A stretch of DNA of 64,000 bases from Eledone cirrhosa (taxonomy: Eukaryota), in contig OZ024741.1 in the NCBI GenBank assembly GCA_964016885.1, positions 124,434,001 to 124,498,000 of the forward strand. The letters are read 5' to 3'. The stretch's first letter is position 1. The number at the start of each line of letters is the position of its first letter. This document shows positions 11,901 to 59,200 of this stretch, piece by piece. Below the pieces are notes generated by a model. That model searched no databases. It saw nothing but the letters and a program-made list of their open reading frames with translations, and had not been told where the DNA came from. A program made the translations under genes and the position numbers.

Positions 11901-14526
11901 GTAGCCGGGTCCTCGTTTATGAAGCCTATCTAAGTCAAGTACACAGATCACGAATTTGTGGTCCGTGTAGCTGCCTATCTTGAATTGTGGAGAGCCTGCT
12001 AGACCTATCTATTTCTCTACAAAATACTCTATCTAGATATGATCTGGATGACCCTATGCGATTTGTCCAAGTCCACATTGGCACATTCGGGAAATCCAAT
12101 CGGTACCTGTCAGACAGTTCAAAACACCTGAGCAGGCTGGTGAGGCTCTTGCACCCTCCTCTCCTATCCGCTAATCCGACACAGTCCCAGCGTGCATCTA
12201 AGATCCCGTTCCAGTCGCCCACTAACATTAAAGAGCGGGACGTTCCAAGAAAGGTCTCCAGACGCCGGAAGTAATCAGGCCGCCCTGCTCCTGTCGGGGC
12301 ATAGACGGCCACTAACCTGAAAGCTTGCCCGTCTCCGCTGGACACGTCTAACACCACCAACTTACCTTCTGGATCCAGGAAGATGGCCCGTATGGCGAGA
12401 TCCAAACGTCTCCGAAAAAGCACAGCAACTCCCCCCCCCCCCGCGATCCCGGACTGCTGGGAGATGCCTACACATCGTAGCCGCCGAAGATCGGTGCGAA
12501 GGCCCGTGCTTCGGAGATTCTGGTCTCGCTGATGGCCACTACATCTATGTTTAGTGACCTGAGGTCGTTGAGCAGGCGGCCCTGCTTCCAAGACAACCCC
12601 AAGCCACGCGCATTTATGCTGCCTATTCTGAGTGAGGTCATGTTGAAATGGAGTGGAAAAGATGGGAAAGACCACATACCTTACTTCTCGTAGAGGAAGG
12701 ATGGTTTCTCCATCCTTTTCACTGCTTGTGGCCTCCTCCGGAAGGATGTCCTTATAAATCCTCCTGGAGAGTGTTTGTCGGAAGTCTCCGATGTCTTTGG
12801 GGAATTTTTGTTTTAGTGTCGTGTACGTTTTCTGTGTGATGCGAGTGATTTGTATGTGTGGAGGTGGTGTGAACTTTTGTGTTGTTGTGTAGTCTTTTTC
12901 TGTGATGCTGCTGTTGTGTTGGATGTAGTGTAATAATTGGTTGTTGTTCAAATTTAATGCTGTGTAGTGTGTATCGTTTTGGTTGTTTTGTTTTGTTTGC
13001 GTTTGTTGTGGGTTTGTTTCTGTTTCGCTTTTTGGTGACTTTTGTGGTGTTGGTGATGGTGGTGTTAGGGTTAATGATGGTGATGGTGTTGGTGTTTGTG
13101 GTGATGGGGTTGGTGATGTTAGTGTGGATGGTGGCATATCTGTCTTAACTTTCTTGTTCGATAATTTATTTGTTTCCCTCTGTATTTTGTTTTTTGAGGG
13201 GGAAGGAAGAGAATTTTTTCTTTTTTGGTTTCTTTTTTTTCTTTTTTTTCCTGATACCGTTTCCCACTCCTCGTCGTCACAATCTGTCTCCATTTGCGAT
13301 AAGCCGGGGAGTGGAAAATCCTCCACAGGCGTTGGTTTTGGTTGTGGTGTGGTGGATGGTGTAGGCGCTGGTGCTATTTCTGGGGCGTTGAGTGGTGGTG
13401 GTGTTGGTTTTGCTACTGTTGCTGGGGTTGTTGCTGTTACAGTTGCTTCTGTTGTTGCTATTACAGTTGTTGCTGCTATTTCTGCTGCTGGTGGTGTTGA
13501 TGGTTGAGTCATTTGGGTGGGTAATAGAGGTGGCCTCAACCTTTTAGCCTGAGGGCAGAAAGCCCTTAGGTGGGTTCCTTCACCACAAACAACACACCTA
13601 GGTCTTCTGCCCTCGACGATTACGGTGAGGTGGCTGCCGTCAGTGAGGTCTATTACCTCTGGGATCTCTTCAATGCTTTTATGGTCCGCTTGGATCAGGA
13701 GCTCCATCCCAGATCCGGACCAGTTCTCCTGCTTTTCTTTTGCTATTTCTATTATTTTGGTAGATGCCGACGAGGACGGCAGCCATTAGCCAGGGAATTT
13801 TGATGGCCGGTGGAACGTGGGTCGCCTTGATCTTCACAAGTCTCTGGCCACAATAGCTTGGGATGAGTGTGAAGTCGTCACTTCTTAATGGGGCCATGGA
13901 GTGTTCTCTGGCCTCCTGTGGTATTTCAAAGAACACGTCCACGGTTCCATACTTCTGCCCACGTCTGATGTGGGTTTTCTTTGCCCACACAAGTCCCAAA
14001 GCTTTTTGGATTTGGGACTCAGATGCCCGTTCCACTCGGCGCGATTTTATGTTTATTGTTCGATAAGACACGGTGCATAGGCGACGTTGCTCCATTGTAT
14101 TAGGTGGGGGAGTGAGGCTGACCCTGTACCCATCTTTCTTTAACACCTGCAGTCATTGGGAATGGCGGGAAATGAACATCTGCCTGAGACAAATTTAAAA
14201 TATTGCTACTGCTTACAATTCCAGTGTTGGCAAACGTAGCAATGTTTACAATGGTGGTGTCGGTGTGAGGTCTTGGATTGTGAGGAAGGAGTGAATCTGA
14301 GTCATCCATTATTTTTCAAAGAAAAAATTTTTTGTTTGATAATTATAAAAAGTTTAAATTTTGGGCTCAAGGCCCCAATATTTTTGAGTGTCCTTTTCAG
14401 AAATCAATGTATGTGCACTTATATATAGTTAACAATAAAAATTTTCCATAAATGGCAATTTTAAATAACTGAAAATAACAAACCTTTGCGGAGCTCACGA
14501 TGATACGATTTACTACGTAGGTCGCA

Positions 14527-14527
<1 letters not shown>
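8966..14527 (-). mobile_element. L1-group (Tx1-like) LINE, apparently full length, frameshifted
   Basis: ORF1 with CxxCx4Hx4C knuckle (CVVCGEGTHLRAFC); ORF2 from ~12641 with APE motifs (INARGL, AISET, VYAP, GDWN, WTW, LDRVF), RT (FRPITLLN, KAFDRVDH, RQGCPLS, YADD) and CPRC..ET..H; AATAAA then (ATT)n at the 3' end. Confidence 0.92.
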
Positions 14528-14557
<30 letters not shown>

Positions 14558-17500
14558 GAGAGATTAGATTGGAAATGGAGGGTGGAGTATGCCAGGCAAA
14601 CGGGCCAGTGGGAAATGAAGGTGAAGAGGTTGAGAGAACGGAGGAACCATCCGAAGCAGACAATGATCTGAATGCTGAAATAAATAATACCTGGAACAGA
14701 GATACGGCCATTGAGGAGATGAATGCTGACGGGCTAGGACAAGATTTGGTTGATATCCTAAACTTAGTGGTAGATAAATTGAACAATGATAGTGGGAAAC
14801 TTATGAACCTAAGATTTGTAGACAGGAAAAAGATAAAAGAAACAACAGTTAAGGTAAACAAAGTCATCCCATATGTTGAGGCGAGGAGCCTTCACCAGTG
14901 CAACAATATCCTCAAAGCCACAGCAAATGCGGTGAGAAAATTACTTGGCATAAAAGCGAGAGGAAACAACAAACAAGAAAGATCAGAACCTTGGTGGAAG
15001 AAACGACTGAATGGTCAAATCAGGGAAATGAGAAATGACACAAAATAGACTGGAAATAAAGTACAAAACTAGGAGGAAAAAGATAAATATTATCATAGAG
15101 GAACTGAAGCAACGCATTGTAGCAAAGAGTGCAAAGATTAGGCGATACGAGAGCAGAGTCAGTCAGTATAGACAGAACCGCATGTTTGACAACAACCAGA
15201 AGATGCTGTTTGGACAGCTTGAAAGGAAAGAAAGAGGCAACGACTTGATCCCTGAGGCGGAACAAACTAAGACATTCTGGAGAGGAATATGGGAGCAGGA
15301 TGTTAAACATAATAACCAGGCAGTGTGGATTGAGACAGTACAGTACAAAAGGAGATTAGTGAACAGGCACACCAACAAACTGATTTGAGTATCACAGTTG
15401 AAACTCTTAAGGGGAGGCCAAAAAACTAACCAACTGGAAATCACCAGGCCCAGATGGTGTGCAGAGGTATTGGATTAGAAATATAACATCCCTCCACCCG
15501 AAACTGACAACCATGTTCAATGACTGCTTGATGTCAGGTGAGGTACCAGAGTGGTTGACAATAGGTACCACAGTTCTGGTAATGAAAGACCGAATCAAGT
15601 GTAATGATGTTACCAACTATACACCTATCACATGTCTGTCCGTAATGTGGAAACTGTTGACAAGCATTATGTCTGAGGAAATCTACCATCACCTCCACAC
15701 AAACAACTTGTTACCGGACGAACAGAAAGGATGCCGAAATAAGTCCCGTTGTACAAAGGACCAGTTACTTATTGATAAGATGGTAATGAGGAATTGCAAG
15801 AGGATGGATAGACTACAAAAAGGCATTTGACATGGTGCCTCATTCTTGGATCACCAAAATCCAAGAGATCTTCAAGGTGGCAGATAACATCAGACAGTTG
15901 TTGGGCAAAAGTATGAAGTCCTGGAAAACAGAGTTAACATCAGCTGGAGAATCCTTGGGAAGCGTGAAGATCAAGAGACGTATCTTCCAGGGAGATAGTC
16001 TGTCCCCTCTGTTGTTTGTCCTTGCCCTGATGCCCCTGACCATTATACTGCGAAAAGTGAGAGCAGGATACAAGTTGGGAAAGGGAGAGCTTTCCATCAA
16101 TCACCTCCTCTTCATGGACGATCTTAAGCTCTTCGGGAAGAGTGAGAAGGAGTTGGATGTGCTTGTTGACACTGTCCGTATTTTCAGGAATGATATATGT
16201 ATGCAATTTGGTATTAGTAAGTGTGGAGTCCTTGTGATGAAGAGGGGTAAATTGAGCAGAAGCAACGGAATCCAGGTACCAACAGGTGAGATGAATAAAG
16301 GAAATTGACACTGAAGAAGTATACAAGTATTTGGGTGTTCTGGAGGCTGATGATATCAAGAACAAAAAAATGAAGGAATTGATAAGATCTGAATACATTG
16401 GAAGAGTAAGGAGCGTATTAAAGTCACATCTGAACAGTAGGAATGCCATAAGTGCAATAAATTCCCGAGCTGTGTCTATTATTAGGTACAGTGCGGGAAT
16501 TCTGAGATGGAATGTTGCTGAACAAAAAGAAATGGATAGGAAGACTAGGAAGCTATTGACTATATACAACATGTTCCACAAGAGGAGTGATGTCGATAGA
16601 CTCTACTTAAGGATATCTGAAGGTGGAAGAGGTCTTATCAGCATAGAGGACTGTGTTCAGATGGAGAAAAACAACCTACACAAATACATGACTGATAGTA
16701 AGGAGCCAATGCTCAGAGTTGTACTGAAGGAGAGGACAATAGACTAGGGGATGTCCAAGGAGGAAATAATAACAAGGAGAAAGAGCAGCCTTCATGAAAA
16801 ATCCCTTCATAGTACCTTCTTTGAGAAAACTGAATTCAGAGATCCACAGACATGGAACTGGTTGAAAAGAGACCTTAAAAAGGCTACAGAAGGAATGCTA
16901 ATGGCTGCGCAAGAGCAGGCCCTCAAAACGAAGTGGTTGAAACACCATATTTACAAGGAGGAGGCTAGCCCACTGTGCAGGATCTGTGGAGAGTGAGAGA
17001 GGAAACTGTGGCTCACATTGTATCCGAGTGTAAACACGTAGCCCAGACTCACTATAAGGGCTGGAGACTTGATGTGATGGGCATGGTGATCCACTGGCAC
17101 CTATGCAAAGTAAACAATTTACCACATTCTGAGAAGTGGTATGAGCATAAGCCAGAGTCGGTGATAGAAAACGTTCAGGTGAAGTTGCTGTGGGATTTTA
17201 GGAGACAGACGGACAAGAAACTGGAACACAATAGACCTGACCTGGTGGTTTTGGACAAGGAAAAAAGATCGTTCCTGATTGTGGATGTGGCCTGCCCATT
17301 CGACACGAGAGTGCAAGAGAAGGAGAGGGAGAAAATTAACCGATACCAGGACTTAAAGTGGGAGGTAAAAAGGATTTGTAACTGCCATGAAGTCAAAGTG
17401 GTCCCGATTGTCATAGGCGCACTAGGTACTATCTCAAAAGGTTTCCAGGGATGGTTAAAGAAAATTAGCCCCGCCACGGTTTTTGGAACGCTTCAAAAGG

Positions 17501-17627
17501 CATGCTTGCTGGGAACAGCAAGAACCATCCGATATGTCCTGAATATCTGAGGCTGCAGGTAGTGCCTTGATATTCATTTCAACAAACTTTCCAGTTAACT
17601 AACATCAATGGCTGAGACTCAAAGAAC
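14558..17627 (+). mobile_element. Second, divergent R4/Dong-clade element, probably 5'-truncated
   Basis: PWWKKRL, WKSPGPDG, EQKGC, FQGDSLSPLLF, FMDDLK, CRICG..ETVAHIVSEC, RPDLVV..DVACP..EK..RY; (AAT)n flanks. Confidence 0.92.
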
Positions 17628-31932: not shown

Positions 31933-31963
<31 letters not shown>

Positions 31964-32860
31964 GACAGGGGGGAAGAAAAAATGGCTTCACTTGTGCTTT
32001 CAACAAATTTATTTTCTTCACAAAATCCAAAAAGAATTTTTCTTAAAAAAAATTATTTTATAAATTAAGTTGTTGGTTGTTGGTTAGGTCTTAGGAGTTC
32101 TTGGTTAACGTAGGAGGTATTGTTTCGTTTTTAGAAAGACCTTTCACGCTGAGGTGCGCTTGTCAAACTGATGTGTATGTGGTGTGTTGTTCTATGTATA
32201 GGGATTTAACATGTCTGTGGTGTGGTAGGGGTTTCTTTTCTCCCCCTTTAATAAGTGCATGGGTGTAGGTGTGTTGAAAAAGTGTTCATAGCAGTAATGA
32301 GTTGAGACGGTGAGTAGGGTTGGGTGGGGAGAAACTTAGCAAGTGCGGCCTGCCCCGGTTATTCTCGAAAAATTCCTTTATTCAGGGGAAAAAGCTTTTA
32401 GCATCGCTTTTGTGTTGAGAATGGTCACAGGCAAATCGCACCTGTCAAGCTTGTGAATAATTATTTTTTTCTTTTTTTCCTGAAGAATTTTTCTACGTCC
32501 ATCCCAAAGTTAGTCCTTTGTTCAACACACACATATATATGTGTGCATATATGTACATACACACACGGGCATATGTAGGAACATATAGGCACACACCATC
32601 AATCACACACCCCTGTACAAATACACACACAAAAACATATAGACACATATAAAAATACACATACACATACGTACACACACGAATATGTACACATACCTCC
32701 ACATGGGTATATATATATATACACATATATACACACATACATACACATATACATACATACATATACATATATATATATAAATATATATACATACACATAC
32801 ACATACACACACATACACACACACACACATATATGTATATATATATATATATATATACAT

Positions 32861-32901
<41 letters not shown>

Positions 32902-33194
32902 TACATATATACATATACATACATACATACATACATATACCTACATACACATACATACATATACACACATAAAGATACATAACTAAATATACATATATAC
33001 ACACATACACGCATACATACACATACACACACACACACACACGCACACGCACGTGTGTACACACACACACGCACACACACACACATATACATATGTCCGT
33101 ATATATACCCCTCCGTTCACACATACATGCATACATACACACACATACACCCATACATCTATATATATGTATACACATATAAAGAGAGAGGCAT

Positions 33195-33295
<101 letters not shown>

Positions 33296-33560
33296 TATAT
33301 ATATATACATATACACACACATACATACACATACATATACACATATGTACACATAAATACATACAGACACATATACACATATATACACATACATATACAC
33401 ATACATACATATCCATATACATATATATACACACACATACATATGCACACATATATATATATACATATGTATATATATACACATACATACACATACACAT
33501 ACACATACACATACAAGTACATACATACACACATACATGCATACACATACATGTACATAC

Positions 33561-33591
<31 letters not shown>

Positions 33592-33658
33592 CACATATAT
33601 ACATACACATATATATACATATATATACACATACACACATATACATACATATACACAT

Positions 33659-33692
<34 letters not shown>

Positions 33693-33948
33693 ATATATAT
33701 ACATATATATATATACATATACATGTGTGCGTATACACGAGCACATAAAGACACATATACACATACACATACACATACATATACATACACACACATACAC
33801 ACACATACATCTACATACATACATATACACAAACAGAAACATACACACATGTACACACATATGTACATATATGCACATACATACACACACACACATATAT
33901 ATATAGGTACATACACATACACACACACATAAACATACATATCTATCC

Positions 33949-33997
<49 letters not shown>

Positions 33998-34070
33998 CAC
34001 ACACACACATACACACACACATATACACAAACATACACATACATACATGTACATATACACATATATATAC

Positions 34071-34133
<63 letters not shown>

Positions 34134-34379
34134 TATACATATATATATACACACACACATACAAACATACACACATCCATACATATATGTATATATATAC
34201 ACACACATACACACACACACACATACACACACCCACATACATATATACCCACACGTACATACATCCATACATCCCTACACACATATATGTCTGTGTCTCA
34301 CCGTTCATTCAGATATTCATGTGTATACATAAGAAGGAGGGGGGGGTAGTGAAATGGAATTTTACCTCCGAGTGTTAAT

Positions 34380-36708
34380 TCATTTTTTCGTGTTCAGCAG
34401 TGGTTTAAATTTTTCAATGAAGAATTCTTCTTTATATCTGCGGAAATGTTCGTTATCCGACTATATCTTGAAGAAAGGGAAGATTGTGAATTTTCCCTTC
34501 CCGCATGATGCAAAGTGTGCGCTACATGTAGTATTTCTGACTGTGGGGTCTTTAATTTGTTGTTTATGTACCCGGACTCTATCATGTAATCCCGTTCCGG
34601 TTTCCCCAATGTAATACTCTGTACACTGTGGACATGTTGCGCAATATATTAGGTTTTTCGTATTGCAGTTCATGTTTGCATTGACCTTGAAATTATCATG
34701 GTTTTTGAAGGACAACTGTTTGCCCTCTTCGATGAGTTCACAGCTTCCACATCTAGGGTCCCGCATTTCGTCACTTGCATTGATTCTATGTTGGTCGTAA
34801 ATTTTGCCTTGGTAATTAGTTTTTTACGGTTGGGTGCTTGGCGTCTGCTATAAATTATCTGTGTGTTTTTTAAGAGTGCATTCATTTTGGTAGATTGCTG
34901 TAGAATCGGGAGATACTGCTTAGCAGTTTTCACAATGTTGATGTTCCCTGGGTTGTGAGTGATGACAAAAGAGATAGCAGGGTTTTCTTTTTTATGTTGT
35001 GGGTTCGGTTTTCTCAGTGTTGTTATTGGGATGTTCTTAGCCTTGGAGATGGCTGCGTTGATGAGTTTCATCGGGTATTCTTTTTTTAAGGAATTTTTTC
35101 AGGTCACATAATCTTTTTTCTTGTAGCACGGGGTGTGTTGCTATAGTGCAGATGCGCCTTGCCATGTTGAAGGGAATGTTCCTTTTCGTATGTGAGGGGT
35201 GTGCTGACCGGAAATTTAAGTATTGGTGTGTGTCAGTGGGTTTGCAAAATAGGTCCGTTATGATATTTTCCCCTTCTTTAATGATGAGGATATCTAGAAA
35301 GGGCAGTTCCTTTTCGTTACATTCCATAGTGAATTGTATAGCTTCATGAAGCCTGTTTAGGATCGAATAACATTTTTGTAGGTCTGTTTGGCTTCTGTTC
35401 CAGAAGATGAAGCAGTCATCTAGGTAACGTTTCCAGTTTTTATTAATGTAGAAGGCGAAGTCGTGACTGAATGTTATTTGTAGTTGGGAATCTAATTTTG
35501 CCTCTAAGTGACCCACAACGAGCGTTGCATATGTAGGGGCCACTTTGGTACCCATGGCTGCTCCTTTTATTTGTAGATAAAGTTCGTTGTCAAAGAGGAA
35601 GTGGTTGTTTTCCAATACTAATTTAAGTCCTTCCAAGATGAATTCTTTGGGAAATCTTTCTGAAATGTGACTTGAGTGTTTTGTAATCCAGAAGTCCACA
35701 GCTTCAATCCCTAGGTCGTGTGGGATGTTAGTGTACAGGCTTATTACATCAAAACTGACTAGGATTGTATCCTGGTGTACTTTTGGGGGGATATAGTTAA
35801 GGAATTCCATATCATCTCTGATGTAGCTTGGAACTTTTTTACATAGGGGTTTGAGTATGATGTCTAATAGGTTGCTTAGACGTTGTGTGCTTGAGGCTGG
35901 GCCAGCAATAATGGGGCGTAATTTTAAGTCTGTCGGTTTTGGTGCTTCGATGTATGATGTATTTTTCCCTTTTATGCTGTTTTGGATTTCTATGGATTTG
36001 TGAATTTTTGGTAATCCATAGAAATTGCTGGTTTTCATTACGAAGTTGGTTAGGTAATCTACTTCTTTTGGTGTTAGGTTGTTTTGGTACTTTGTTGTTA
36101 GTTTGCCTATTTGGTTCCTCGATTTCCTTTCTTCGTTTTTAGTGATTTTCCTGTAGAAGTTTGCGTCATTCAAGTGTGCTAGGACCATATCTTTGTAGTG
36201 GTTTGTGTCCATGATGACGATTGCTCTACCTTTGTCCGCTTCTTTTATTATTATTGAGGAATCTCTTTGTAGCTTGTTCAATGCTAGTAGTTGGTCTGTA
36301 GGGATGTTGCATTTGTGTTTCGTCTCGGCCGTATTTGTACGTGCTGATCGGCGAAGGCAGGTTATGTATTCCTCCAGGTATTTATCTCTATTTAGCGGGG
36401 GTGTGAAGTTCTTTTTTGTTTTTCACCAGTGATTCTTCCTCGTATTGTACACCCTGGAAGAATTCTCCTAAGCGTAATTTTCGACAGTATTCTTCTGTGT
36501 CTTTTATAACATCGGCTGTGTCTGCTTTCGGAGTGGGAGTGAACTTCAGTCCATTTTCTAACAGTTGTATTTCTGGTTGTGTTAATTTCTTGGCTGATAT
36601 ATTGATTATTTTTGGTTCGATTGGTTCTTTCTCGTCAGGTGCCACTTGAAAGGTGGTGCTTTTTTCTTTTTTTCTTTCATTTGGTGCGAGGCCCCTAGTC
36701 CTAAAAAA
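34380..36708 (-). pseudogene. PLE A RT-GIY-YIG ORF2 (few frameshifts)
   Basis: ORF pieces 36388-36717, 35037-36281, 34670-35071, 34461-34766. Confidence 0.9.
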
Positions 36709-37820
36709 TGGGGACAATTTGGGATAGGGGTGTTTCTGTTGTGGTGAAACCTTTGGCCCGCCGGAACTTCATGTCGGTAACTGGTTGGGCGATAGACTCT
36801 TGCGTGGCCGTTGCTGTATGGGGGTCTGGTTCTTCTGTTGATTCGTTCAGTATTCATGTGTCTTTGATTTTGTCTCCGGTGATTGTTCTTGGTGTTATGG
36901 CAGTGGTTGTATCTGGTTCTGGTGTTGAGTATTGGGTCTGTATGTAGTTGTGTGTTTGGGGTTACCCAATATCTAGTTGTTGTTGGTTTATTGTGTGTGG
37001 GTGCTTCATTTCTTGTGTTGTTGTATTTTCCTGAGTTCTGGGGTTTCCTATGGGTTTGTTTTCTGGGTTTTATTTGGTCTTTCCCATAGTTATCTTCATA
37101 TTCTTGAAGCCATTGAGTTCTTGACTCCAAGATTTTCTTTGATTTTAACTCCTCTCTAGTTGTATCTGTCTGCCATAGGTTGAGGAGTTTTTCACGTACA
37201 TTGCCGCTGCTTCTTTTGTTTATTTCCTCTTGGATGGTGGTGTCGCATTTTTCAAATTTCTCTTTGAATTTTGGCACTCTTAGGCGGAGTAGGGTGATTT
37301 CTGTCTCAAGTGTTTGGAGTGCTAGATTTAGTCTTGTTGCAGTTTCTTCCTTTGATTCCGATGGTATTTCTTTAATTCGGAATTTTCTCGGGAGGATAAC
37401 TGGTTCCTTGCTAAGCCATATTTCGTATGTGTCTGCTAGGTTTTCACTCCTCAAGGCTTTCCAGTATGCCTGTTTCCTTTGATTTAATAAAGGTTTCCAA
37501 ATGTTTTTCATTTGGTTTCTTTTTCTGTAGGCTTCTTTTTCTAGGTTCAGTTCATTCCATTCTTTGAATGCATTATTGGTGATGGAGTTCTGTTCATGTG
37601 TAGCTATTTCAGGAGAAAAGGTTTGTTCTTGTTTTTGCCGGTCTGTAATTAGTGAATCAAGTTTTTCCCTGTAGCTGCGTGTTTGTTGTTCCATTTCTTG
37701 TACGGCATTCGTAAGGGAATCATATTTATCTATTATTATGGTGAGTTTTTCTGATATTTCCTGTAGTAGTGTATCCGATCTGAGGGATTCAGTAGAGGAT
37801 TTTGAACGTGTGTTAGCCAT
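36606..37820 (-). CDS. PLE A ORF1 (~404 aa, helical/coiled-coil-like with basic C-terminus), intact
   Basis: ATG at 37820 (MANTRSKS); homologous to the decayed ORF at 48693-50046. Confidence 0.7.
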   Translation of the reverse strand: MANTRSKSSTESLRSDTLLQEISEKLTIIIDKYDSLTNAVQEMEQQTRSYREKLDSLITDRQKQEQTFSPEIATHEQNSITNNAFKEWNELNLEKEAYRKRNQMKNIWKPLLNQRKQAYWKALRSENLADTYEIWLSKEPVILPRKFRIKEIPSESKEETATRLNLALQTLETEITLLRLRVPKFKEKFEKCDTTIQEEINKRSSGNVREKLLNLWQTDTTREELKSKKILESRTQWLQEYEDNYGKDQIKPRKQTHRKPQNSGKYNNTRNEAPTHNKPTTTRYWVTPNTQLHTDPILNTRTRYNHCHNTKNNHRRQNQRHMNTERINRRTRPPYSNGHARVYRPTSYRHEVPAGQRFHHNRNTPIPNCPHFLGLGASHQMKEKKKKAPPFKWHLTRKNQSNQK

Positions 37821-37992: not shown

Positions 37993-38552
37993 ATGATAAT
38001 TTCAAGGTCAATGCTAACATGAACTGCAAAACGAAAAACCTAATATATTGCGCAACATGTCCACAGTGTAAAGAGTATTACATTGGGGAAACCGGAACGG
38101 GATTACATGATAGAGTCCGGGTACATAAACAACAGATTAAAGACCCCACAGTCAGAAATACCACATGTAGCGCACACTTTGCATCATGCGGGAAGGGAAA
38201 ATTCACAATCTTCCCTTTCTTCAAGATATGGTCGGATAACGAACATTTCTGCAGATATAAAGAAGAATTCTTCATTGAAAAATTTAAACCACTACTGAAT
38301 ACGAAAAAATGAATTAACACTCGGAGGTAAAATTCCATTTCGCTACCCCCCCCCCTCTTCTTATGTATACACATGAATATCTGAATGAACGGTGAGACAC
38401 ACACATATATGTGTGTAGGGATGTATGGATGTATGTACGTGTGGGTATATATGTGTGTGGGTGTGTGTATGTGTGTGTGTATATATATACATATATGTAT
38501 GGATATGTGTATGTTTGTATGTGTGTGTGTATATATATATGTATATATATGA

Positions 38553-38598
<46 letters not shown>

Positions 38599-38667
38599 AT
38601 ATATGTGTATATGTACATGTATGTATGTGTATGTTTGTATATATGTGTGTGTGTATGTGTGTGTGTG

Positions 38668-38762
<95 letters not shown>

Positions 38763-38981
38763 GGATAGATATGTATGTTTATATGTGTGTGTATGTATGT
38801 GTATGTACCTGTATATATGTGTGTACATGTGTGTATGTTTCTGTTTGTATATATGTATGTATGTAGATGTATGTGTGTGTATGTGTGTGTATGTATATGT
38901 ATGTGTATGTGTATGTGTATATGTGTCTTTATGTGCTCGTGTATACGCGCACATGTATATGTATATATATATATATGTATA

Positions 38982-39034
<53 letters not shown>

Positions 39035-39099
39035 ATGTGTATATGTATGTATATGTGTGTATGTGTATATATATGTATATGTATGTGTATGTATATATG

Positions 39100-39132
<33 letters not shown>

Positions 39133-39375
39133 GTACATGTATGTGTATGCATGTATGTGTGTATGTATGTAATTGTATGTGTATGTGTATGTGTATGTAT
39201 GTGTATATATATACATATGTATATATATATATATGTGTGCATATGTATGTGTGTGTATATATATGTATATGGATATGTATGTATGTGTATATGTATGTGT
39301 ATATATGTGTATATGTGTCTGTATGTACATATGTGTATATGTATGTGTATGTATGTGTGTGTATATGTATATATA

Positions 39376-39432
<57 letters not shown>

Positions 39433-39549
39433 ATGCCTCTCTCTTTATAGGTGTATACATATATATAGATGTATGGGTGTATGTGTGTGTATGTATGCAT
39501 GTATGTGTGAACGGAGGGGTATATATACGGACATATGTATATGTGTGTG

Positions 39550-39589
<40 letters not shown>

Positions 39590-39701
39590 CGTGTATGTGT
39601 GTATATATGTATATTTAGTTATGTATCTTTATGTGTGTATATGTATGTATGTGTATGTAGGTATATGTATGTATGTATGTATATGTATATATGTATATAT
39701 G

Positions 39702-39732
<31 letters not shown>

Positions 39733-39735
39733 ATG

Positions 39736-39768
<33 letters not shown>

Positions 39769-40657
39769 ATGTGTGTGTATGTGTATGTGTATGTATATAT
39801 ATTTATATATATATATGTATATGTATGTATGTATATGTGTATGTATGTGTGTATATATGTGTATATATATATATACCCATGTGGAGGTATGTGTACATAT
39901 TCGTGTGTGTACGTATGTGTATGTGTGTTTTATATGTGTCTCTATATGTTTTTGTGTGTGTATTTGTACAGGGGTGTGTGATTGATGGTGTGTGCCTATA
40001 TGTTCCTACATATGCCCCTGTGTGTATGTACATATATGCACAGATATATATGTGTGTGTTGAACAAAGGACTAACTTTGGGATGGACGTAGAAAAATTCT
40101 TCAGGAAAAAAAGAAAAAAATAATTATTCACAAGCTTGACAGGTGCGATTTGCCTGTGACCATTCTCAACACAAAAGCGATGCTAAAAGCTTTTTCCCCT
40201 GAATAAAGGAATTTTTTGAGAATGACCGGGGCAGGCCGCACTTGCTAAGTTTCTCCCCACCCAACCCTACTCACCGTCTCAACTCATTACTGCTATGAAC
40301 ACTTTTTCAACACACCTACACCCATGCACTTATTAAAGGGGGAGAAAAGAAACCCCTACCACACAACAGACATTTTAAATCCCTATATATAGAACAACAC
40401 ACCACATACACATCAGTTTGACAAGCGCACCTCAGCGTGAAAGGTCTTTCTAAAAACGAAACAATACCTCCTACGTTAACCAAGAACTCCTAAGACCTAA
40501 CCAACAACCAACAACTTAATTTATAAAATAATTTTTTTTAAGAAAAATTCTTTTTGGATTTTGTGAAGAAAATAAATTTGTTGAAAGCACAAGTGAAGCC
40601 ATTTTTTCTTCCCCCCTGTCTTAATATACCTAACTGTACCAAGGATTACACACATTT

Positions 40658-46832: not shown

Positions 46833-49800
46833 CTGTGTGTGTGTGTGTGTGTATATATATTATGTGTGTGTGTAGCATTAACTATGCAGGAGAAATCCAA
46901 ATCATTCACTGCGTTCTGAGGTGATTAAAGTGTCCTGTCTTCGATCGTATTGTCATGAGTTCGATTTCCGGTGACATATTGTGTCTTTGAGCACTGTAGT
47001 TTATTTCACAAGCATGTTGCTCTGTTCATCGAAGTAGTACATACACTGACAGATGCACAGCATTATATAGTACTAGCAGTGGTTTTCTGCTAGCATGTGT
47101 AGTATGTATATTGATATTATACACAAATATATATATATGCATGTAAATAAAATCGTAATTGACAATATACACAGCAATTGAACGAAGACTGTGTTACACT
47201 GTCTTATGTAATCAGTAACGTAATCCATGATACGTTTAAAAAAAGACGATATTATATATAAACTGCATTAGGAGAAAATTAGCGACGGAAATATATACTA
47301 TTATAAGTGTTATAATATAACGGCCGCTAACCGGAAGTGTTGACATTTGACAATTTTAAAGAAGTGAATCTTTGAACAAGCTATAAAATATATTTAATCA
47401 ACAGCCACGAAATTTAGTAGATAAATTATGTAATATTCATTCATTATTTATTCAAAGTAATGCAACTTATTTTACAAACGGGGTAAAAAATATATATTCT
47501 GGATGCAGTCCCGCACTCCTGTCTTTATTATAGTTAAGATTCATATTTTTATGTATCACTATATAATATTTTCCCAGAACACGTTGGTCATCTTTCATTG
47601 AAAGACATTCAAATAATGTTTCGAAGAATGTAATAAAAGTTATAAGATTGAATGTACCTCTACATTTATATATATCTAGTATCAATGGAAATATTCCCGT
47701 AATGCATTCAACATTTCAAACGTAAGGTCATGTGTGTTATTCCCGGTAGCTTACTGTGTCTTTGTGGAAGACACTTTATTTCAAGTTGCTCCAGTCCGCA
47801 AAGGTATTTAAAATGAGTTTATCTGTAATTCATATGGCCGGACTTGTCACACACTGAGCCACGCTGAATCTTCCAGAAAGCTAAGTTGAGGGTTCATGTG
47901 TCTGTGGAACATTCAGGTACATATTGATTTAGCGAGTAGGCTGATCCATTGATCAAAACAACTACAATGGTCGGAAACAGACTGTCCAAGCGATAACAAC
48001 GGTAGTTCGACTGCCTCCGTATAATTAACACTGTATTTTTTTGTTCTTATTTTTGTTGTGCCTCAGTAAGGATTATTTAACTATATCTATTATGTTCGTA
48101 GGCGGCGAATTGGCAGAGTCATTCAAACACTGGATAGAATTGTCTCAAATCCCACCGAGGTCAACTTTGCCTTTCATCCTCTCTCTAACTTTCTAACTTT
48201 CCCTATAAGAAATCTGCTGTACTCAGGCCTGGAGAGTACAGGAATTGATTCAATTCAATTAGAAGCTATATAACCTAAATTTTAAATTCGCTAGCCGTTT
48301 ATAAACTAAGCATTGTTTGTGTCTACATTTTATATACATATATATAAATACCTACTATATACCGACGAAAGCTCATATATATATATATACAGTAGCACCT
48401 GTACAGAAAGATGAACCAGACCAATTGAATATGAGAGTGAAGAAAATTCCAACTCTTCAGATAAGGAAAATAAAATGCCTGAATCGTTCAATTAACACTT
48501 AACATTTAATATTCTATCATACTATTTCATTATAATACCATTATAAATTTTAAAGGATTGTAAATAAAACGAGTAAATCAGACAAAGTTGGAATTCCTCT
48601 TATTAATATAATCTTCTATACACAATCATACACACCAGTGTATATTTATATATATATATATATATATATATTCCTATTGTGTATATGCCAACATGTTTGG
48701 AAAGCAACAAATGAAATCAACAGAATCAGAAAGAATTCTAAAGGAGATATCATCGAAATTATAAACACTTATCACGATGATTGACACACAATCCTCTATT
48801 TTAAAAGAAATAGAAAAACAATCTACAGACGGAAAACTTATAACTGAACATATAAACTCTGAAATTAAGAATTTAGCTGAAATTATACCAACAGTTATCA
48901 AAGATACAAGAGAAAGCCTACCACAACCCCCTTGGATGTCAGAACTAAACGAAAGAAATTTGGAAAACAAAACACATCGGATAAGAATAGAAATGTGGAA
49001 GACATGGAAAAAATTTCTTAACATAAGAAAACAAAACTTCTGAAAAAGCATACAAATGCGAAAAATATGTCGAAACACATTCGAAATGGATCTCTCTAAC
49101 GGCACCCATACTCCCTCGTAAATACCTAATTACAGAAATTGCAGGAGAACCAGAAGAAGAAACAAAACTCCGATGGGAACTTACATTGACAAAATTCAGG
49201 ACGGACATCTCCATTTCTTAATGTAAACAATCCCGCTACAAAGCCAAATATGAAGCTATCGATGACCAAATTGAAGTTGAAATTTCAAAGCTAACGACTG
49301 GTATTATAGCTGAAAAACAACGAAAACTATGGATCAGAGATATCTCAAAAGAAGAAAACAAATAAAAAAAGGTATGGCAGCAGAAACAATTATTTCTCGA
49401 CGAATATGCTGCAAATTACGGTAAAGACTCTGGAACCCTGAGAAAAAGCATTGAAAGTGGACAATCTCACCAACACAACATACGCCAGAACACGTGCCAA
49501 CACAAACACTCACCTTACCTTGAATCAAAGAAGAACTACGGTAATAACTCTTCGCCTTTTCTACAAAAACACCCTATCGCACACAGCATGAACAAAAAGC
49601 ACAAACACGATAGATATTCCGTTGACCAGACCATGAGAAGTAGTAAAACCAAGAGATCATTCTCAAGATCTCAACAGAGACTACCCACAAGGAATGTGGA
49701 AACAAAACGTAGAATAACCAGATCACTCTCAAGATCTCAACAGAGATTACCCACAAGATACTGGGCGAAAAAACGATCGAAACCTGAAAGCAAACCTGGG

Positions 49801-51645
49801 TCATTTCCCCAGTTTGTTAAAAATAATGCTAACAAGAAATAGAAAAATAATATACATAATACCAAAAATAGGACAAAATACATAACGAAACCAAATATAA
49901 TATCACGACCAAAAGTTCATCAAGCGAACACCGACAGGAATATAAATCCTGAACAGAGAAAAATCCATTTTTTAACGTCAGGACAACAAAAACCGGGAAA
50001 AGAAAAACTCCAGGAGGAAACATACCCAAAACAACTGTACACGTAGATCCTAAAATGATTAATTTATCCAAAAGAGATCTTGACAATGATGAAATGCAAA
50101 TTCTGTCAAAAGGACTGAAATTCACACCGACTCCAACAGTCAACTATCAAGAACTGAAGGAGGATACCCAAGAATTCTGTCGAAAATTACGTCTTGTAGA
50201 ATTATTCGCTGATAAAAGTAATGGGAGTGATGAATCTCTAGTAAAGAGTAAATCAAATTTCACTCCCCCAAAAGGAAGAAATATCTATCTCGACCAATAC
50301 ATTGACATCCTGTCTAAATTTCCTCTTAGACGTAATACTAATGTTAGGCCAAACATTAACAAATCAGAAATGTCTGAACTTAAACGTATACAAAATGATA
50401 AAACAATAATAATTAAACAAGCAGATAAAGGGGGTGCAGTTGTTATAATGGATGCTGAATACTACAAGGATTTGGTTGAGGAACAACTGAAAGACACATC
50501 ATTCTATCATGAAATACCGTCAAATATAGACTACAACATCATGAAGAAGATCAACAACCTGGCTTCAAAATACTACAACTTACATACTGATAAGGAAAGA
50601 GACTACATCACCAATTTTTAGCCAAAACCCAGCAACCTGTATGGCCTACCGAAAGTTCACAAGTCAAAAGAAATACAACTGGCAGTAAGAGAACAAAACA
50701 GTGAGTACATTAAATAAACTACACCCAAAAGACTTAAAACTTAGACCTGTTATAGCTGGTCCAACATGCCCCACCCACCGTCTAAGCAATTTTGTTCACA
50801 TTATTTTGAAACCACTATGTATTCACATACCCAGTTTCATCCGGGATGATATCGACTTCCCAAAACCACGGAAACGAATTCACTTCTACTTAGTTTTGAT
50901 GTTGTAAGCCTGTACACCAACATTACACATGATTTAGGAATAAAGGAGGTTAAATACTGGGTGGAAAAACATAGAGAAGTGATTCCCATCAGATTCACAG
51001 CGCCATTTATATTAAACGCAGTTAAACTTATTCTGGAAAACAACACTTTCTTCTTCAATGGAAAGAATTACATCCAAATTAGAGGTACAGCGAACTCTGT
51101 AATGGGATACTCAGAACAACAACTCTACCAAGAAATAGAGGAAAAATATAGTACGGACTTTAGAAAGTACATTGAAAAATCTTGGAAGAGATACTTTGAC
51201 GACTGTTTCATCATCTGGACAGAATCTCTAGATACTCTGGTTGAATTCAATATCCTCCAGAATAACTTACACCCATCTCTCCAATTCACAAAAGAGATGA
51301 GTAGGACCAAATTACCATTCCTAGATATAATGATAATCAAAAACGACACCACCATTACCACGGATATATATTATAAACACACAGACACCCATCAATATCT
51401 GAATTTTAAGTCGTGCCATCCACCTCATACAAAACGCAACATCCCATACTGCCTAGCCAGAAGAATTTGTACCATTGTAGAAGATACGAATACCAGGTAC
51501 AAACGCCTAACAGAACTAAGAGAAGTTTTGCTGAAACAAAAATACCCATCTCTACTTATAGAAAATAGCATACAGCATATAAAGATACCTATACAACATA
51601 GGACAACCCAAGGAAGAAGAAACCAAGAACTGGTCATACCATTTA

Positions 51646-51830
51646 TAATTGTTTCTACTTTAGGCACAAGGCCAGCAATTACCCAGTGCATTACTGGTAC
51701 TTTATTTTATCAACCCCGTGAGGATGAAAGGCAAAGTCAACCTCGGCGGGATTTGAACTCAGATCATAAAGGGACGTAACTATGCTGGAAAGCATGGCGT
51801 CCGACCCTCTACCGATACTGCCAATCAACC
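51646..51830 (-). mobile_element. SINE inserted into the PLE B linker
   Basis: Interrupts IPFI..THNP; reverse complement of the 29191 family. Confidence 0.85.
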
Positions 51831-52763
51831 GCACAACCCATATCACCAGAATATCTTCAACACTGCCAAAGCAAACCTACCGATCATTGCTCAAAGTAAT
51901 GAATTAAAAGGCTTAATCACAGATCGATTTTGACTCTTAGTAAAAGACAGCAAAAAAATTGAAGCAATTACTAACAAAAGCAAAGTTTTACCTTAACAAC
52001 AAAGACCAATCATTCACTGTATCTAAATGCAATGATAGTCGATGCGGCACATGTCAATCCATACACGCCGGTCAATATATGAAAACAAAAACTGGAAAAA
52101 TATTCCCAAATGCAAATATGAACTGCAAAAGCAGAAATCTAATTTGCTGCATTAAATGCCCGAATTGTGAAGAACTATATGTCGGTCAAACTGGAAATGC
52201 ACTATCGAAACGTGCACGGGTACACCGTCAGCAAATCAGAGACCCAAATGTCCGTCAGATACCCCTAAGTAACCATCTAGCAACATGTGGTCAGGGAATA
52301 TTTATAATATTCCCATTCTAAATTTACAAAGCCCAGGTGAAATCAAGAAAAGAATTTTATTGATAAATTCAAACCAAGCTAAATGAACAATAATAATGCT
52401 TAGGGGTATTACTTCTACTATGACTATGACTACGACCACTAACAACAACAACAACAATAATAATAATAATAAAAGTGATGTTGATGGTGATGATTACTAG
52501 AAAATGCTATTTTCATCATTTCTAAAAATAGCAAAACAATTGATGCTTTGGATAAGATCAATTAGTGGTCGTAAGATATGCTCAACCAACCGTGACGCCT
52601 AAACCAATCAGCTTTAGTAATTCAGTGAAATTACACACCGATTGATCGAAATACAGTTTGCAAGAATTAGCAATCTGGAGCCACTTTTCACTGTATATAA
52701 GGTACAAAATTTACCCATCTCATTACAGTTGAAAATTGCAAACTTGACTGTCACCACACATTA

Positions 52764-52802
52764 TGAACCTGAAGATTGCGAAAGCATGAAAGTACTTGTT
52801 CA
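52764..52802 (+). ncRNA. Minimal type I hammerhead ribozyme in PLE B pLTR
   Basis: TGAAC-CTGAAGA-T TGC GAAA GCA T-GAAA-GTAC-TT-GTTCA; palindromic stem III; predicted cut after 52797. Confidence 0.85.
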
Positions 52803-52915
52803 ATTAACACTTAACATTTAATATTCTATCATACTATTTCATTATAGTAGCATTATACATTTTAAAGGATTGTAAATAAAACGAGTAAATCAGACAAAGT
52901 TGGAATTCCTCTTAT

Positions 52916-52957
<42 letters not shown>

Positions 52958-52959
<2 letters not shown>

Positions 52960-54116
52960 GTTTGAAGTTAGAAGGCCAGAACGATGCAGGTATGGATATA
53001 GAATATAATTACAAATGCAAAAGATATTGCTGACAATTAGTCTTTTACCTTAAATTTATTTGAACATCCTTATATTTCGAGATAATATCCCTTCTTCAGA
53101 GCTATCAGACGAGAGGGACTAGATATCCAGCTAGCCCACTCAGGACCTTCTCGACGCGGACAGCTAACCAAGAGACAATCCATCTGACATGACAGCCGCT
53201 GCACGCTGGCCAACTCCCCCATCAACGACACAGACCTATGCCACCAGGTTTATGTCGTATACAGATTAGAGTGCGACAAATACAGCAATTTCTACATAGG
53301 TAGCACCACCAGACCACGTCACATAAGAATAAAAGTACACCTCAACACTAATGCTTCCTCATTTAAGAAACACCTAGCGAAATGCAAAAACACCGACAAA
53401 AACATAATAATTAGGATAGAAGCTAAGGAAAGAAACCTCGGCAATCTTAGAATTTAAGAAGCACTAATTATAGATAAAACGCGGCCACCAATCAATAATA
53501 GACTAGAACTCAACATGATAGAGCACCTAGCCCCACACTTACACCTCCACGTATCCTCTCACACCCACACACACACGCACCCACACACGCACACTTACAC
53601 CTTTACTTATTCTCTCTCACACATACACACACATAGACCAGTTTTAACATGATAGAGCATCTAGCCCCCACATTTACCTATAAACATATCTTCTAACACT
53701 CACACACACGCACACACACACACGCATGCTTATACCTTCACGTATTCTCCCACACACACATACACACACTTAGACATACATGGCCAAACCTTTTTAAAGG
53801 GAGACAACCCTTTATCCACCTAACCTTCACTCTTTGACATTAGAAATAGAATGGAATTTCTATACTATTTCCTGTCAGCATGACTTGGCAAGCTAATTAG
53901 AACATAGGATTAACTCCTTTATCTCCCTCTGAAGAAGGGATATTATCTCGAAATATAAGGATATTCAAATAAATTTAAGGTAAAAGACTATTTGTCAGCG
54001 ATATCTTTTGCATTTGTATTTATATTCTATATCCATACCTGCATTGTTCTGGCCTTCTAATTCCAAACCTTTATACCTCACTACGCAATGCTTCAAGTAA
54101 ACTACCATTTCCTTCT
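52958..54116 (+). mobile_element. 5'-truncated PLE (GIY-YIG ~53190-53530) with inverted pLTR
   Basis: C..VYVVYRLECDK...FYIGSTTR..H.R.K.H..LRI*EALII..P.IN; 52960-53100 is the inverse of 53928-54068. Confidence 0.85.
53926..53960 (+). ncRNA. Minimal hammerhead motif
   Basis: CCT-CTGAAGA-aGGGATAtTATCTC-GAAA-TA-TA-AGG. Confidence 0.7.
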
Positions 54117-55972: not shown

Positions 55973-56086
55973 TATGTATAAGTGTGTGTATGTATAAATA
56001 AATAAATATATATATATATATATATTTATTAACATAACAGATTAAAGTTTAAGCAATTGGATTTTAGTCTTCAAATTTATTATTAT

Positions 56087-56127
<41 letters not shown>

Positions 56128-56147
56128 CTTATATTTTAATAAATATA

Positions 56148-56227
<80 letters not shown>

Positions 56228-56231
<4 letters not shown>

Positions 56232-59200
56232 TGAAAATAGGGAGAAAAAGACAATTATTAGGAACAAAAATATATTTGTTTTCTTTTTATTTTTTTTTTT
56301 TTTTTCTGAGTTAGAACATGTTTAAAACAAAATATTTTACTTTGTGTGAAGTGTTGAGGTATTAGTTAATTTATTTATTAATTGACAATGGCATTTATTA
56401 ATTTATTTATATATTTAATAATTATCTATTACCGGTTTCAGCATTTTATGCATTATCAAAAGGGGTAATATGTATTGGTATAAAATGGTGATGTTGAACA
56501 TGTTAAGGAAATGGTGAAGAAAGAATAATGTTATTTACAAACAAGTTTTTTGAAGTGAAAAGAAAAAAGAAAAAAAAGAAAAAAAAGGGGTGGCTAATGT
56601 CGAACATAATAGGGTAATGGGAAATAAAAAATAATATTATTTACAGGCATAGTTCTTGAAGATAAGCAGTTCAAAATGTGTTATTATGTCAAGAGTGTTC
56701 AGTTGATCCATGATAGAGCCAAATGGTAGTCTGGGGTTTGATATGATTTCCCCTTTTAGAGAGTTAATATGCAGAGGGGGGTAATTCAGGGTGGTCAAGT
56801 AAGTGAGAGAGAGTATACAATTTATATAAGAAAAAGGATTAGGTAGGGTGTTAGGGAGGTATATCTTTAGAGAAACATGGGGATTTGGTTTTGGTTCATT
56901 GTTCGTTCCAGCTTTAGTTTAGTCCGAAGTTTAGTCCATTAAGTAGAGGTTGGAATTTGTCAATGAAGTACGTTTCCTTATTGGTACGATGGATGAAAGA
57001 AGCGTTGTCTATGAATTTGTAAATGGGGAAAATTGTTAAGTTTGGATGTTGGTTAGGTGCACAATTGGCGAATATGTTCACTAAACACAATCTTTATGAA
57101 TTCCTGTATTTTGATTTGTGATCTATGGGCGGACATACGTTGTCGGAGGCTGTTTTTTGTTTGTCCTATGTAGTTCTCTTGACAACCTGAGCGGGTCAAA
57201 ACATAGATTAGGTTTTCAGATGCACATGTAAAGTTGTGTTTAACTGTGAAATGTTGTCCTTGTTTAAAATGGAATGTTGAAACTTCTATTAGATTTATGC
57301 ATATGCTACAGTTGGGTCTTCCGCATTTTGTTACTGTAGGGTTCATTGTGTGGGTTGGTTGGATTTTGGCTTCTGTGAGGATGTTTTTTATGGATTTAGG
57401 TTGTCTTTTGCTCTTTATGATGTTGTGTGTTTGGAAGATTTTGTTCAGTCTTGGGTCTGTTTTTAGTAAAGGAATGTTCTGGAGGATGGTGTCGAATGCC
57501 TCATTGTTGAGGGGGTTGTATGTGGAGATGTATGGTAGAGTTTTCTGTTGCGGTTCATTCCTGGGTTTGGAGTGTCTGAGTTCCTGGATGTTGCGTTTTA
57601 GGGCACGTTGGAATCCATTATTGATTAGGGATGGCGGGTAGTTTCTGCTGATAAGTGTGTTCTTTAATTATTCTAGTCGTGTGTAGCATGTGTATTTATC
57701 TGAAACTATTGTGCAAATCCTTCTGGCTAAGTTTATAAGGAATTGCAATTTTGGTATGGCGAGGGTGGTAATAGTTGAATGGAAGATATTGTTTGGAGTC
57801 TGTGGGTTTGTAGTATATGTCTGTTTCTATTTTGATGTTTGTTTTCTTGATGAGGATGTCGAGGAAAGGGAGTTATTCATGGCTGTAATCCATTGTAAAT
57901 TGTAAATTTGTGTTGAGTCCATTTAGAAGGGTTTTTTAACACAATCAGTCTATCTATACTATCATGCCAGAGGATGAAGCAGTCGTCCAGATACCTCTTC
58001 CAGTTTTTTCTATGTGTAGGTAGAAGTGGTTACCGTATTTGTCTAGAACTTTGCGGTAGAGAGTGGTTTTCAAATATCTCATGACAAGGTTGGCGTATGA
58101 GGGGCTACTTTCGTGCCCTTGGCAGTCCCAGATTTCTGTCTGTAGCATTTGGCATCGAATTCGAAGAAGTTGTTTTCCAAGATGAATTTGAGTCCCTCCA
58201 ACACAAATTCTTTAGGGATGCGCTGTGGAAGTTCACTAGGGAAATGTTCAAGCCAGAATTGTATTGCCTCTATACCTAGGTTGTGTGGGATATTGGAATA
58301 TAAATTGATGACATCTAAGGTTACTAGTAGGGTATGTTCATTATTGAGTGTTGTTGGGAGGTGTTTGAGCATGTCAAGGCCGTCCCTTATGTAGCTTTTT
58401 ATGTGTTTTAGGAAAAGTTTAAACAGAATATCTAGGAAGTTGCTTAAGCAGTGGGTTTCACATGTGGTACCTGCTATTATGGGTCTTAATTTAAGGTCAT
58501 CAGGAGGGGGTATATTGGTGTAAATGTCTGTGGCTTGCAGGCCGTGCCTATTACTTCGCTTTTGTGTGTCTTTGAGATACCGTAGACGAGGCCGGTTCTG
58601 CTTTTGAAATTAGTGATGTAGTTGTATTCTTTGTCTGTAAGGCCTTCTTTGTAAAGGGTTGTTAGAGATTTTAGGTTTCTCATTATTTTCTGTTGTGTAG
58701 TGTTGCGCCTTTTCGTAATATGTTTGGTTTTCTAGAGTTGAGAGTACTAGCGTCGTGTAGTAATCTGCACTCCCTTTAATCTGCCTCTTTGATTGTTAGG
58801 GTTTTGTCGTTCTGTAGACTATTAAGACCATTCCATTCTTTTTTGCTTAGGTTTGGTTTTTGTTTATGTCTGTGTAGGTGGTCGTATGGGTAATTAGTAA
58901 TGTGTTCGCAGAATTGATCGAGGAATTTGTCCTTGCCTTTTGGTGGGGTGTAGTTGCTTCTATTTCTGGCTATTGAATCATATTCATTGTATTTGTCGTA
59001 TAGTTGCTCGCTGAGTCTTTGTTTTCTGCAGAATTCTGCAATATCATCCTTCATTTCTGGGTAGTTTGGTCGTTGGAGAGTTGGTGTAAAGTTTAGACCT
59101 TTGGAGAGTATGTTGATTTGGTCTGTTGTTAATTAATAAATAAATTAACTAATACTTCAACACTTCACACAAAGTAAAATATTTTGTTTTAAACATTTTC

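Follow-up and report, generated by a model that had tools for sequence, protein, structure and literature searches.

Canonical endonuclease-bearing (EN+) Penelope-like elements (PLEs) are called single-ORF in the abstract of Craig et al. 2021 (PMC8557442), and excerpts of PMC4209133 and PMC6515669 use the same wording. The initial annotation of the DNA studied here also described GIY-YIG PLEs as single-ORF, which matches usual description, but the legend to Fig 1 of Craig et al. 2021 already has a PLE ORF1 separable by a frameshift with a pseudoknot; the frameshifted PLEs of that legend are probably the EN-deficient Athena, Coprina and Terminon types. The available text of the same paper reports the Neptune group as paraphyletic. 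The accessible portions of PMC6431247, PMC3846280, PMC5408684, PMC4700185, PMC5718144 and bioRxiv 10.64898/2026.07.22.740005 make no mention of programmed frameshifting in PLEs, and the word 'Penelope' is absent from the accessible part of the Atkins 2016 recoding review. Our literature search found no slippery site described for EN+ PLEs, though an earlier description may exist, and no termination-driven frameshift signal of the kind considered below. Although PLEs with a frameshift are known, we found no published account of an EN+ clade in which a U6A signal lacks structure and the spacing of the stop follows a rule.

Two PLEs with an upstream ORF1

The window, a 64,000-nucleotide stretch of the Eledone cirrhosa genome, contains two divergent PLEs, A and B, in each of which an ORF1 precedes the reverse transcriptase-endonuclease (RT-EN) frame. 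Their principal features, and a third PLE, are as follows.

36606..37820, minus strand: element A ORF1, from the ATG at 37820 to the TAA at 36608-36606, 404 aa
36702..36708, minus strand: element A slippery heptamer T_TTT_TTA, in -1 phase to the RT, present in 29/30 family copies
34394..36708, minus strand: element A frame coding for RT, Neptune-type Cys linker and GIY-YIG
37993..40628, plus strand: inverted copy of the A 3' end (inverted 5' pLTR), 91% match to 31956-34699
48693..50046, plus strand: element B ORF1, ending HFL plus 23 aa at the TAG at 50044-50046
49950..49952, plus strand: TGA closing the element B RT frame five codons before the heptamer, its position shared by 30/30 copies
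49968..49974, plus strand: element B slippery heptamer T_TTT_TTA, present in 30/30 family copies
49968..52393, plus strand: element B RT-EN frame, broken in the window; stop to stop it has 775 codons in copy L093
52761..52807, plus strand: minimal type-I hammerhead motif with palindromic GTAC, in the B 3' pLTR
56075..59134, minus strand: third PLE, 87% identity to family G

Both window copies are decayed and dead. The ORF1 of A has a helical N-terminal part of 245 aa followed by a basic low-complexity tail ending HFL plus 31 aa, and its junction reads as first annotated, with CAT TTT TTA in ORF1, the heptamer at 36708-36702, and a -1 frame beginning PFFRTRG that leads to INIS about 33 codons and to GLKFTPTP 52 codons downstream of the heptamer. 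The RT-EN frame of this copy is disrupted by indels near 36412, 35081 and 34759; in the intact copy L091 the first RT-frame Met lies 113 codons past GLKF. The 3' region of family A includes a long TA/CA/TG microsatellite-like stretch (31956-34400 and 37993-40628 in the window), which is part of the element, is duplicated within the inverted pLTR and is also present in L091.

The B junction likewise agrees with its first description: CCATTTTTTA lies at 49965-49974, the TGA at 49950 closes the RT frame, ORF1 ends at the TAG at 50044-50046, and INLS follows 31 codons on. That B has the heptamer in the same phase as A holds through intact relatives, but it could not be read from the window ORF1 itself, which is interrupted by stops and indels; in the intact copy L093 this ORF1 is 449 aa long. 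The statement that both elements share a longer sequence including a CCA prefix does not stand, the prefix being variable and many young B copies reading TCATTTTTTA. The surroundings are indeed not conserved: over 117 nt the A and B flanks have 34% ungapped identity and are unrelated. Window B has a private Met ahead of INLS, where 29/30 B copies have Ile. The pLTR repeat of B at 48486-48610 recurs at 52798-52922; a short repeat with many window copies is inserted at 51650-51831, splitting the RT-EN linker region, and a separate decayed GIY-YIG-like fragment lies 3' of B at 53000-53520. Elsewhere in the window, the third PLE is 5'-truncated just before GLKF and hence lacks a junction, and three decayed non-LTR retrotransposons with RT-like frames are found at 5161-8606, 9217-14152 and 14521-17550.

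Conservation of the junction among genomic copies

Comparison of family copies, proposed in the initial annotation as a check, shows the -1 offset and the heptamer to be fixed in both A and B; a run of five or seven T is not the rule. The best 30 loci per family were analyzed, with 40 scored of 260 candidates for A and of 1,561 for B. The local -1 offset is identical in 30/30 A loci, an intact heptamer is retained by 29 of the 30 A copies and by all 30 B copies, and copy length does not vary across the 60 loci. ORF1 stops 31 codons past Phe-Leu (FL) in 28/30 A copies and 23 codons past it in 30/30 B copies; the RT frame is open up to the locus end in 14/30 B loci. Both frames are intact in L091, L092 and L093, with ORF1s of 404–449 aa and RT frames of 775–796 codons. 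In family B, near-identical copies are numerous and frequently lie in tandem or inverted pairs (L043–L060), which suggests recent activity.

The pattern KGLKFTPTP has 1,609 matches genome-wide, and the first 30 of these loci, which represent B and about five additional families, comprise 18 with the heptamer in phase, six with the heptamer and a downstream indel, four with a mutated heptamer and two that are truncated. At locus L072 one T fewer is present and the frames read through. In control windows of 180 nt, an in-phase heptamer occurs in 7/189 within the RT and 0/108 within ORF1; the in-phase heptamer is not a chance occurrence. Neither is the site an assembly error: no indel or joint is present there among the matches listed in read-derived contigs of three public runs, contigs that are uninformative on splicing.

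The ORF1 family and its relatives

Homologues of ORF1 are recorded as standalone proteins of about 400 aa, one of them named from Saccostrea, and a profile search returned 843 homologue clusters, of which the best 150 were listed. Tails were analyzed in 91 proteins of 330–560 aa out of 157. FL lies within the last 45 aa in 81 of the 91, as against 3, 5 and 11 of 91 in upstream control windows, and is absent from the ends of the other ten. In these 81 proteins, which end x-Phe-Leu, the residue before FL is never K, Q, E, M or W (0/81, against a background of 25.5%); codons for these five residues cannot end in T, and their absence therefore implies T-TTT-TTR. Although the profile seeds contained FL, a core-only profile recovers all 91 at E<=1e-10, and FL is present in 76/86 non-seed homologues.

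Among 80 loci from outside this genome, GLKF could be placed in 65, and a T6 run no more than 300 nt upstream is in -1 phase in 14, all metagenome loci, and in another phase in two. Of 11 loci with a match to the ORF1 profile upstream of the RT, 10 have it in the expected frame, and the other (L103) is decayed. Two loci depart from the common site. In L110, T_TTA_AAC stands in place of T_TTT_TTA and a TAA directly before it closes the RT frame; L137 is a clade member with the same -1 offset and no XXXYYYZ heptamer. The L137 junction is TAT TTT CGA, about 160 nt upstream of GLKF, with a stop 10 codons after YF, and proteins P0214 and P0229 have F-R tails similar to it; these tails may mark a second kind of shift site.

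None of the 120 RT homologues listed (of 593) is fusion-sized, their lengths being 496–899 aa in a search range extending to 1,358 aa. A viral contig collection contained no relative of these elements, and a scan of GTDB gave one locus, of single-ORF type. Five RT-EN proteins (P0027, P0032, P0079, P0102 and P0116) and L182 are recorded as coming from bacterial symbionts or MAGs of bivalves; these RT-EN proteins are most likely host contamination. Distant PLE lineages, most of them without an endonuclease (L143, L148, L152, L168, L169 and L174), have slippery heptamers in phase (TTTTTTA, AAAAAAC, GGATTTT, GGGTTTT and TTTAAAC), with the zero-frame stop 0–2 codons on. L174 has an upstream frame of 812 codons and the sole pseudoknot score exceeding all shuffles.

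An AlphaFold2 model of the first 250 aa of ORF1 has five long helices (pLDDT 92). Neither PDB nor BFVD yielded a Foldseek match at E<=0.001, comparison with the ESM Atlas gave nothing usable, and no Pfam match to ORF1 rose above cut-off. From the helices and basic tail, ORF1p is predicted to be a coiled-coil, RNA-binding, particle-forming protein. The initial annotation had proposed a gag-pol-like strategy, and this is apt for the expression logic but not for the protein, ORF1 being without Gag similarity: searches with Pfam, and with Foldseek for ORF1, found no Gag, capsid or zinc-knuckle match in ORF1 and no protease domain.

Classification of the elements

In the RT-EN protein, Pfam identifies RVT_1 (E=5e-10) and GIY-YIG (E=5e-4, just under its cut-off), and motifs of a PLE-type RT and, C-terminally, of a GIY-YIG with CCHH are seen in L091, L093 and L098. 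The RT-EN linker has C-x4-C-x2-C, conforming to the Neptune CX2-5CxxC, with a Neptune-like long spacing to GIY, as judged by eye against rows of Craig et al. Fig S2. The pLTRs are in tandem and inverted arrangements; hammerhead pattern matches are present in family B, L105–L108 and L129 and, by pattern, in none of family A, and Rfam on four loci reported no hammerhead, only sub-threshold microsatellite matches. Unlike the EN-deficient Athena and Coprina, which carry telomeric repeats at their ends, these elements have a GIY-YIG domain and interstitial copies on many contigs, and unlike the canonical EN+ form they have two frames at a fixed -1 offset. In a midpoint-rooted RT tree of 39 rows, from which four too-short families were excluded and which has no named reference (Neptune included), all 16 EN+ rows of the ORF1 type group in a single clade (100/100), and T6A/G is present in 15; where the RT frame of a relative is open for more than 200 codons upstream, that relative falls outside the clade and has no heptamer. 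By their motifs A and B are EN+ PLEs of Neptune type, and we assign them to this clade.

Frameshifting and alternative explanations

The initial reading of the junction as a -1 frameshift site is supported by an offset and heptamer fixed across copies, families and other organisms, and by the heptamer swap in L110. Judged from sequence, -1 programmed ribosomal frameshifting at U_UUU_UUA likely yields an ORF1-RT-EN fusion in this clade, with a probability of about 0.86. As in classical sites, the overlap contains an X_XXY_YYZ heptamer in -1 phase. Of 19 DNA families, all selected for having the heptamer, 5 have the RT frame closed 0–1 codon upstream of it. Programmed -1 frameshifting accounts at once for the constancy of phase, the T that precedes TTT, the swap of heptamer and the RT frames closed just upstream. 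The families share no start codon for the RT frame. Against frameshifting, an in-frame Met lies a short way ahead of GLKF in several of them. Under the proposed mechanism, most ribosomes would terminate 10–31 codons past the site and release ORF1p, a minority would slip to produce a fusion of roughly 1,130–1,200 aa, and the structural protein would thus outnumber the enzyme. The default promoter of the slip would be the intrinsically slippery U6A with its slow UUA codon, to which termination by a ribosome about 30 nt further downstream may contribute a roadblock.

An unlikely alternative is that the T run is the polypyrimidine tract of a 3' splice site at TTTTTTAG, with an intron joining part of ORF1 or a 5' UTR to the RT; PLEs retain introns on transposition, so genomic copies would hide it. 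PLE introns are documented in the accessible text of Craig et al. 2021 (PMC8557442), an AG directly follows the T run in 14/19 families with the RT phase always the same, and a G-starting codon follows FL in 60/81 ORF1 tails. However, B, L106, L108, L110 and L130 lack an immediate AG, the first AG being in another phase in L106 and L110 and 74 nt off in L130, so that no acceptor is common to all families when the intron raised as a possible refutation is sought in the sequence. Pyrimidine content upstream is 0.30–0.70, splicing has no need for ORF1 to read the run as Phe-Leu (81/91), and the T_TTA_AAC of L110 would be unexplained. Less probable again is independent translation of RT-EN by re-initiation or internal initiation, as in L1 ORF2, with FL as a protein motif of the ORF1 tail. 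An ATG does lie 11 nt after the ORF1 stop in window B, and some families have a Met before GLKF; yet that ATG is private (1/30 copies), and the first Met in A and E is 113–114 codons after GLKF, beyond the GLKF and DKG motifs. A protein motif, moreover, would not bar K, Q, E, M or W before FL (0/81), and in L110 N-L-N replaces FL at a different slippery heptamer.

The frame might also be changed off the ribosome, if a slipping polymerase inserted one extra U. A homopolymer does form the site, and HIV RT produces indels at U6A in vitro, according to the part of PMC5737442 available; we consider this very improbable, since the run is just six T, all 60 A and B loci agree in copy length, and the T_TTA_AAC of L110 suits tandem tRNA slippage, not a homopolymer. 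There is next to no likelihood that these are single-ORF elements in which the offset arose by mutation or assembly error. Both window copies are decayed and L072, with one T fewer, reads through, but young copies in which neither frame is broken (L091–L093) have the fixed offset, which is seen as well in read-derived contigs and across the whole clade.

Downstream structure and spacing of the ORF1 stop

The absence of a clear shared downstream stimulator, noted at the outset for A and B, extends to the family set, with no conserved hairpin or pseudoknot after the site. Folding z is below -2 in 3/19 families and folding energy is near zero in D and G; no pseudoknot scores above shuffles in any of the 19; and a 4-bp stem starting 3–10 nt downstream is absent in A, B and seven other families. 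The classical stem-loop or pseudoknot 5–9 nt downstream is thus not the pattern here, a strong hairpin being found solely in L170, and by the folding, pseudoknot and stem tests a stimulator shared across families was rejected.

In all 19 DNA families ORF1 continues for 10 codons or more beyond the heptamer before its stop, against 7.2 families expected, and in seven the distance is exactly 10 codons, against 0.74, the expectation being drawn from shuffled RT-frame linker codons. Among the 81 proteins no stops fall in codons 1–9, one tail is 9 aa, 23 are exactly 10, and beyond codon 10 the stop rate is roughly 5–20% per codon. On the ORF1 tree, tails with the 10-codon state group together (9 changes, the shuffle mean being 20), so that the state is inherited, not the product of 23 independent events; it is kept although the proteins have a median identity of 23% and tails that cannot be aligned. 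The zero-frame stop of the EN-less loci and L174 is 0–2 codons past the site. The suggestion that the +10 stop follows from conservation of a hydrophobic residue in the RT frame found no support: at that codon F, Y, C or W occurs in 8/57 non-stopping tails, as at neighboring positions. A periodicity at 10, 20 and 30 codons is hinted at in the 19 DNA families and unclear in the 81 proteins.

When eukaryotic ribosomes collide, they come to lie about 10 codons from each other, about one ribosome length. With the stop at that distance, a terminating ribosome could hold the next one on the slip site. The accessible text of PMC9661723 reports disomes enriched with the leading A site at stop codons, and that of PMC7544508 bacterial queues behind stops with about 27-nt spacing; effects of stop position on frameshifting are also treated in the part of PMC11797035 available. 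A tentative and rather doubtful model is that the slip is stimulated not by RNA structure but by termination at the ORF1 stop, the next ribosome colliding on U_UUU_UUA; a stop kept 10 codons past UUA would then couple RT synthesis to ribosome load on ORF1. The stops of A and B, at 31 and 23 codons, stand against this model, and a minimum ORF1 tail length combined with pressure for a short overlap predicts an identical stop distribution.

Comparison with known systems

These results change the picture of EN+ PLEs as single-ORF elements, define an unannotated ORF1 protein family of more than 800 clusters without a Pfam match, and explain the N-truncated versions of these RTs in databases. The stop-spacing rule poses the question of whether a terminating ribosome could replace RNA structure as the -1 stimulator, for which families D and G, where no structure is predicted downstream and ORF1 stops after exactly 10 codons, are natural test cases.

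The heptamer was initially identified with the HIV-1 gag-pol slippery sequence, and rightly: the available text of PMC3561942 gives UUUUUUA. The two systems share this heptamer, often followed by G, and the logic of structural protein then enzyme; they differ in that the downstream stem-loop is missing in most of the PLE families and in the lack of any Gag, capsid, zinc-knuckle or protease match noted above. In SARS-CoV-2, -1 frameshifting is affected by where the zero-frame stop lies (Bhatt et al. 2021, PMC8168617, as far as its available text goes), as may also hold here, but the proposed role of the viral stop, at a distance of five codons, is to allow refolding of a pseudoknot, whereas the PLE clade has no pseudoknot and its stop avoids the first nine codons.

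Among PLEs, the EN-less L143, L148, L152 and L168 have slippery heptamers at a similar distance from GLKF, although in the EN-less loci and L174 the stop is, unlike in the A/B clade, just 0–2 codons from the site. The two-ORF PLEs of Craig et al. 2021 also have a helical (coiled-coil) ORF1 upstream of a PLE RT and joined to it by a frameshift. A further comparison is with the Neptune EN+ PLEs, which these elements resemble in the GLKF and DKG N-terminal motifs, RT, Cys linker spacing, GIY-YIG with CCHH, inverted and tandem pLTRs, hammerhead, and insertion in TA-type microsatellites, and from which, as canonical elements are described, they differ in having a separate ORF1 family-wide.
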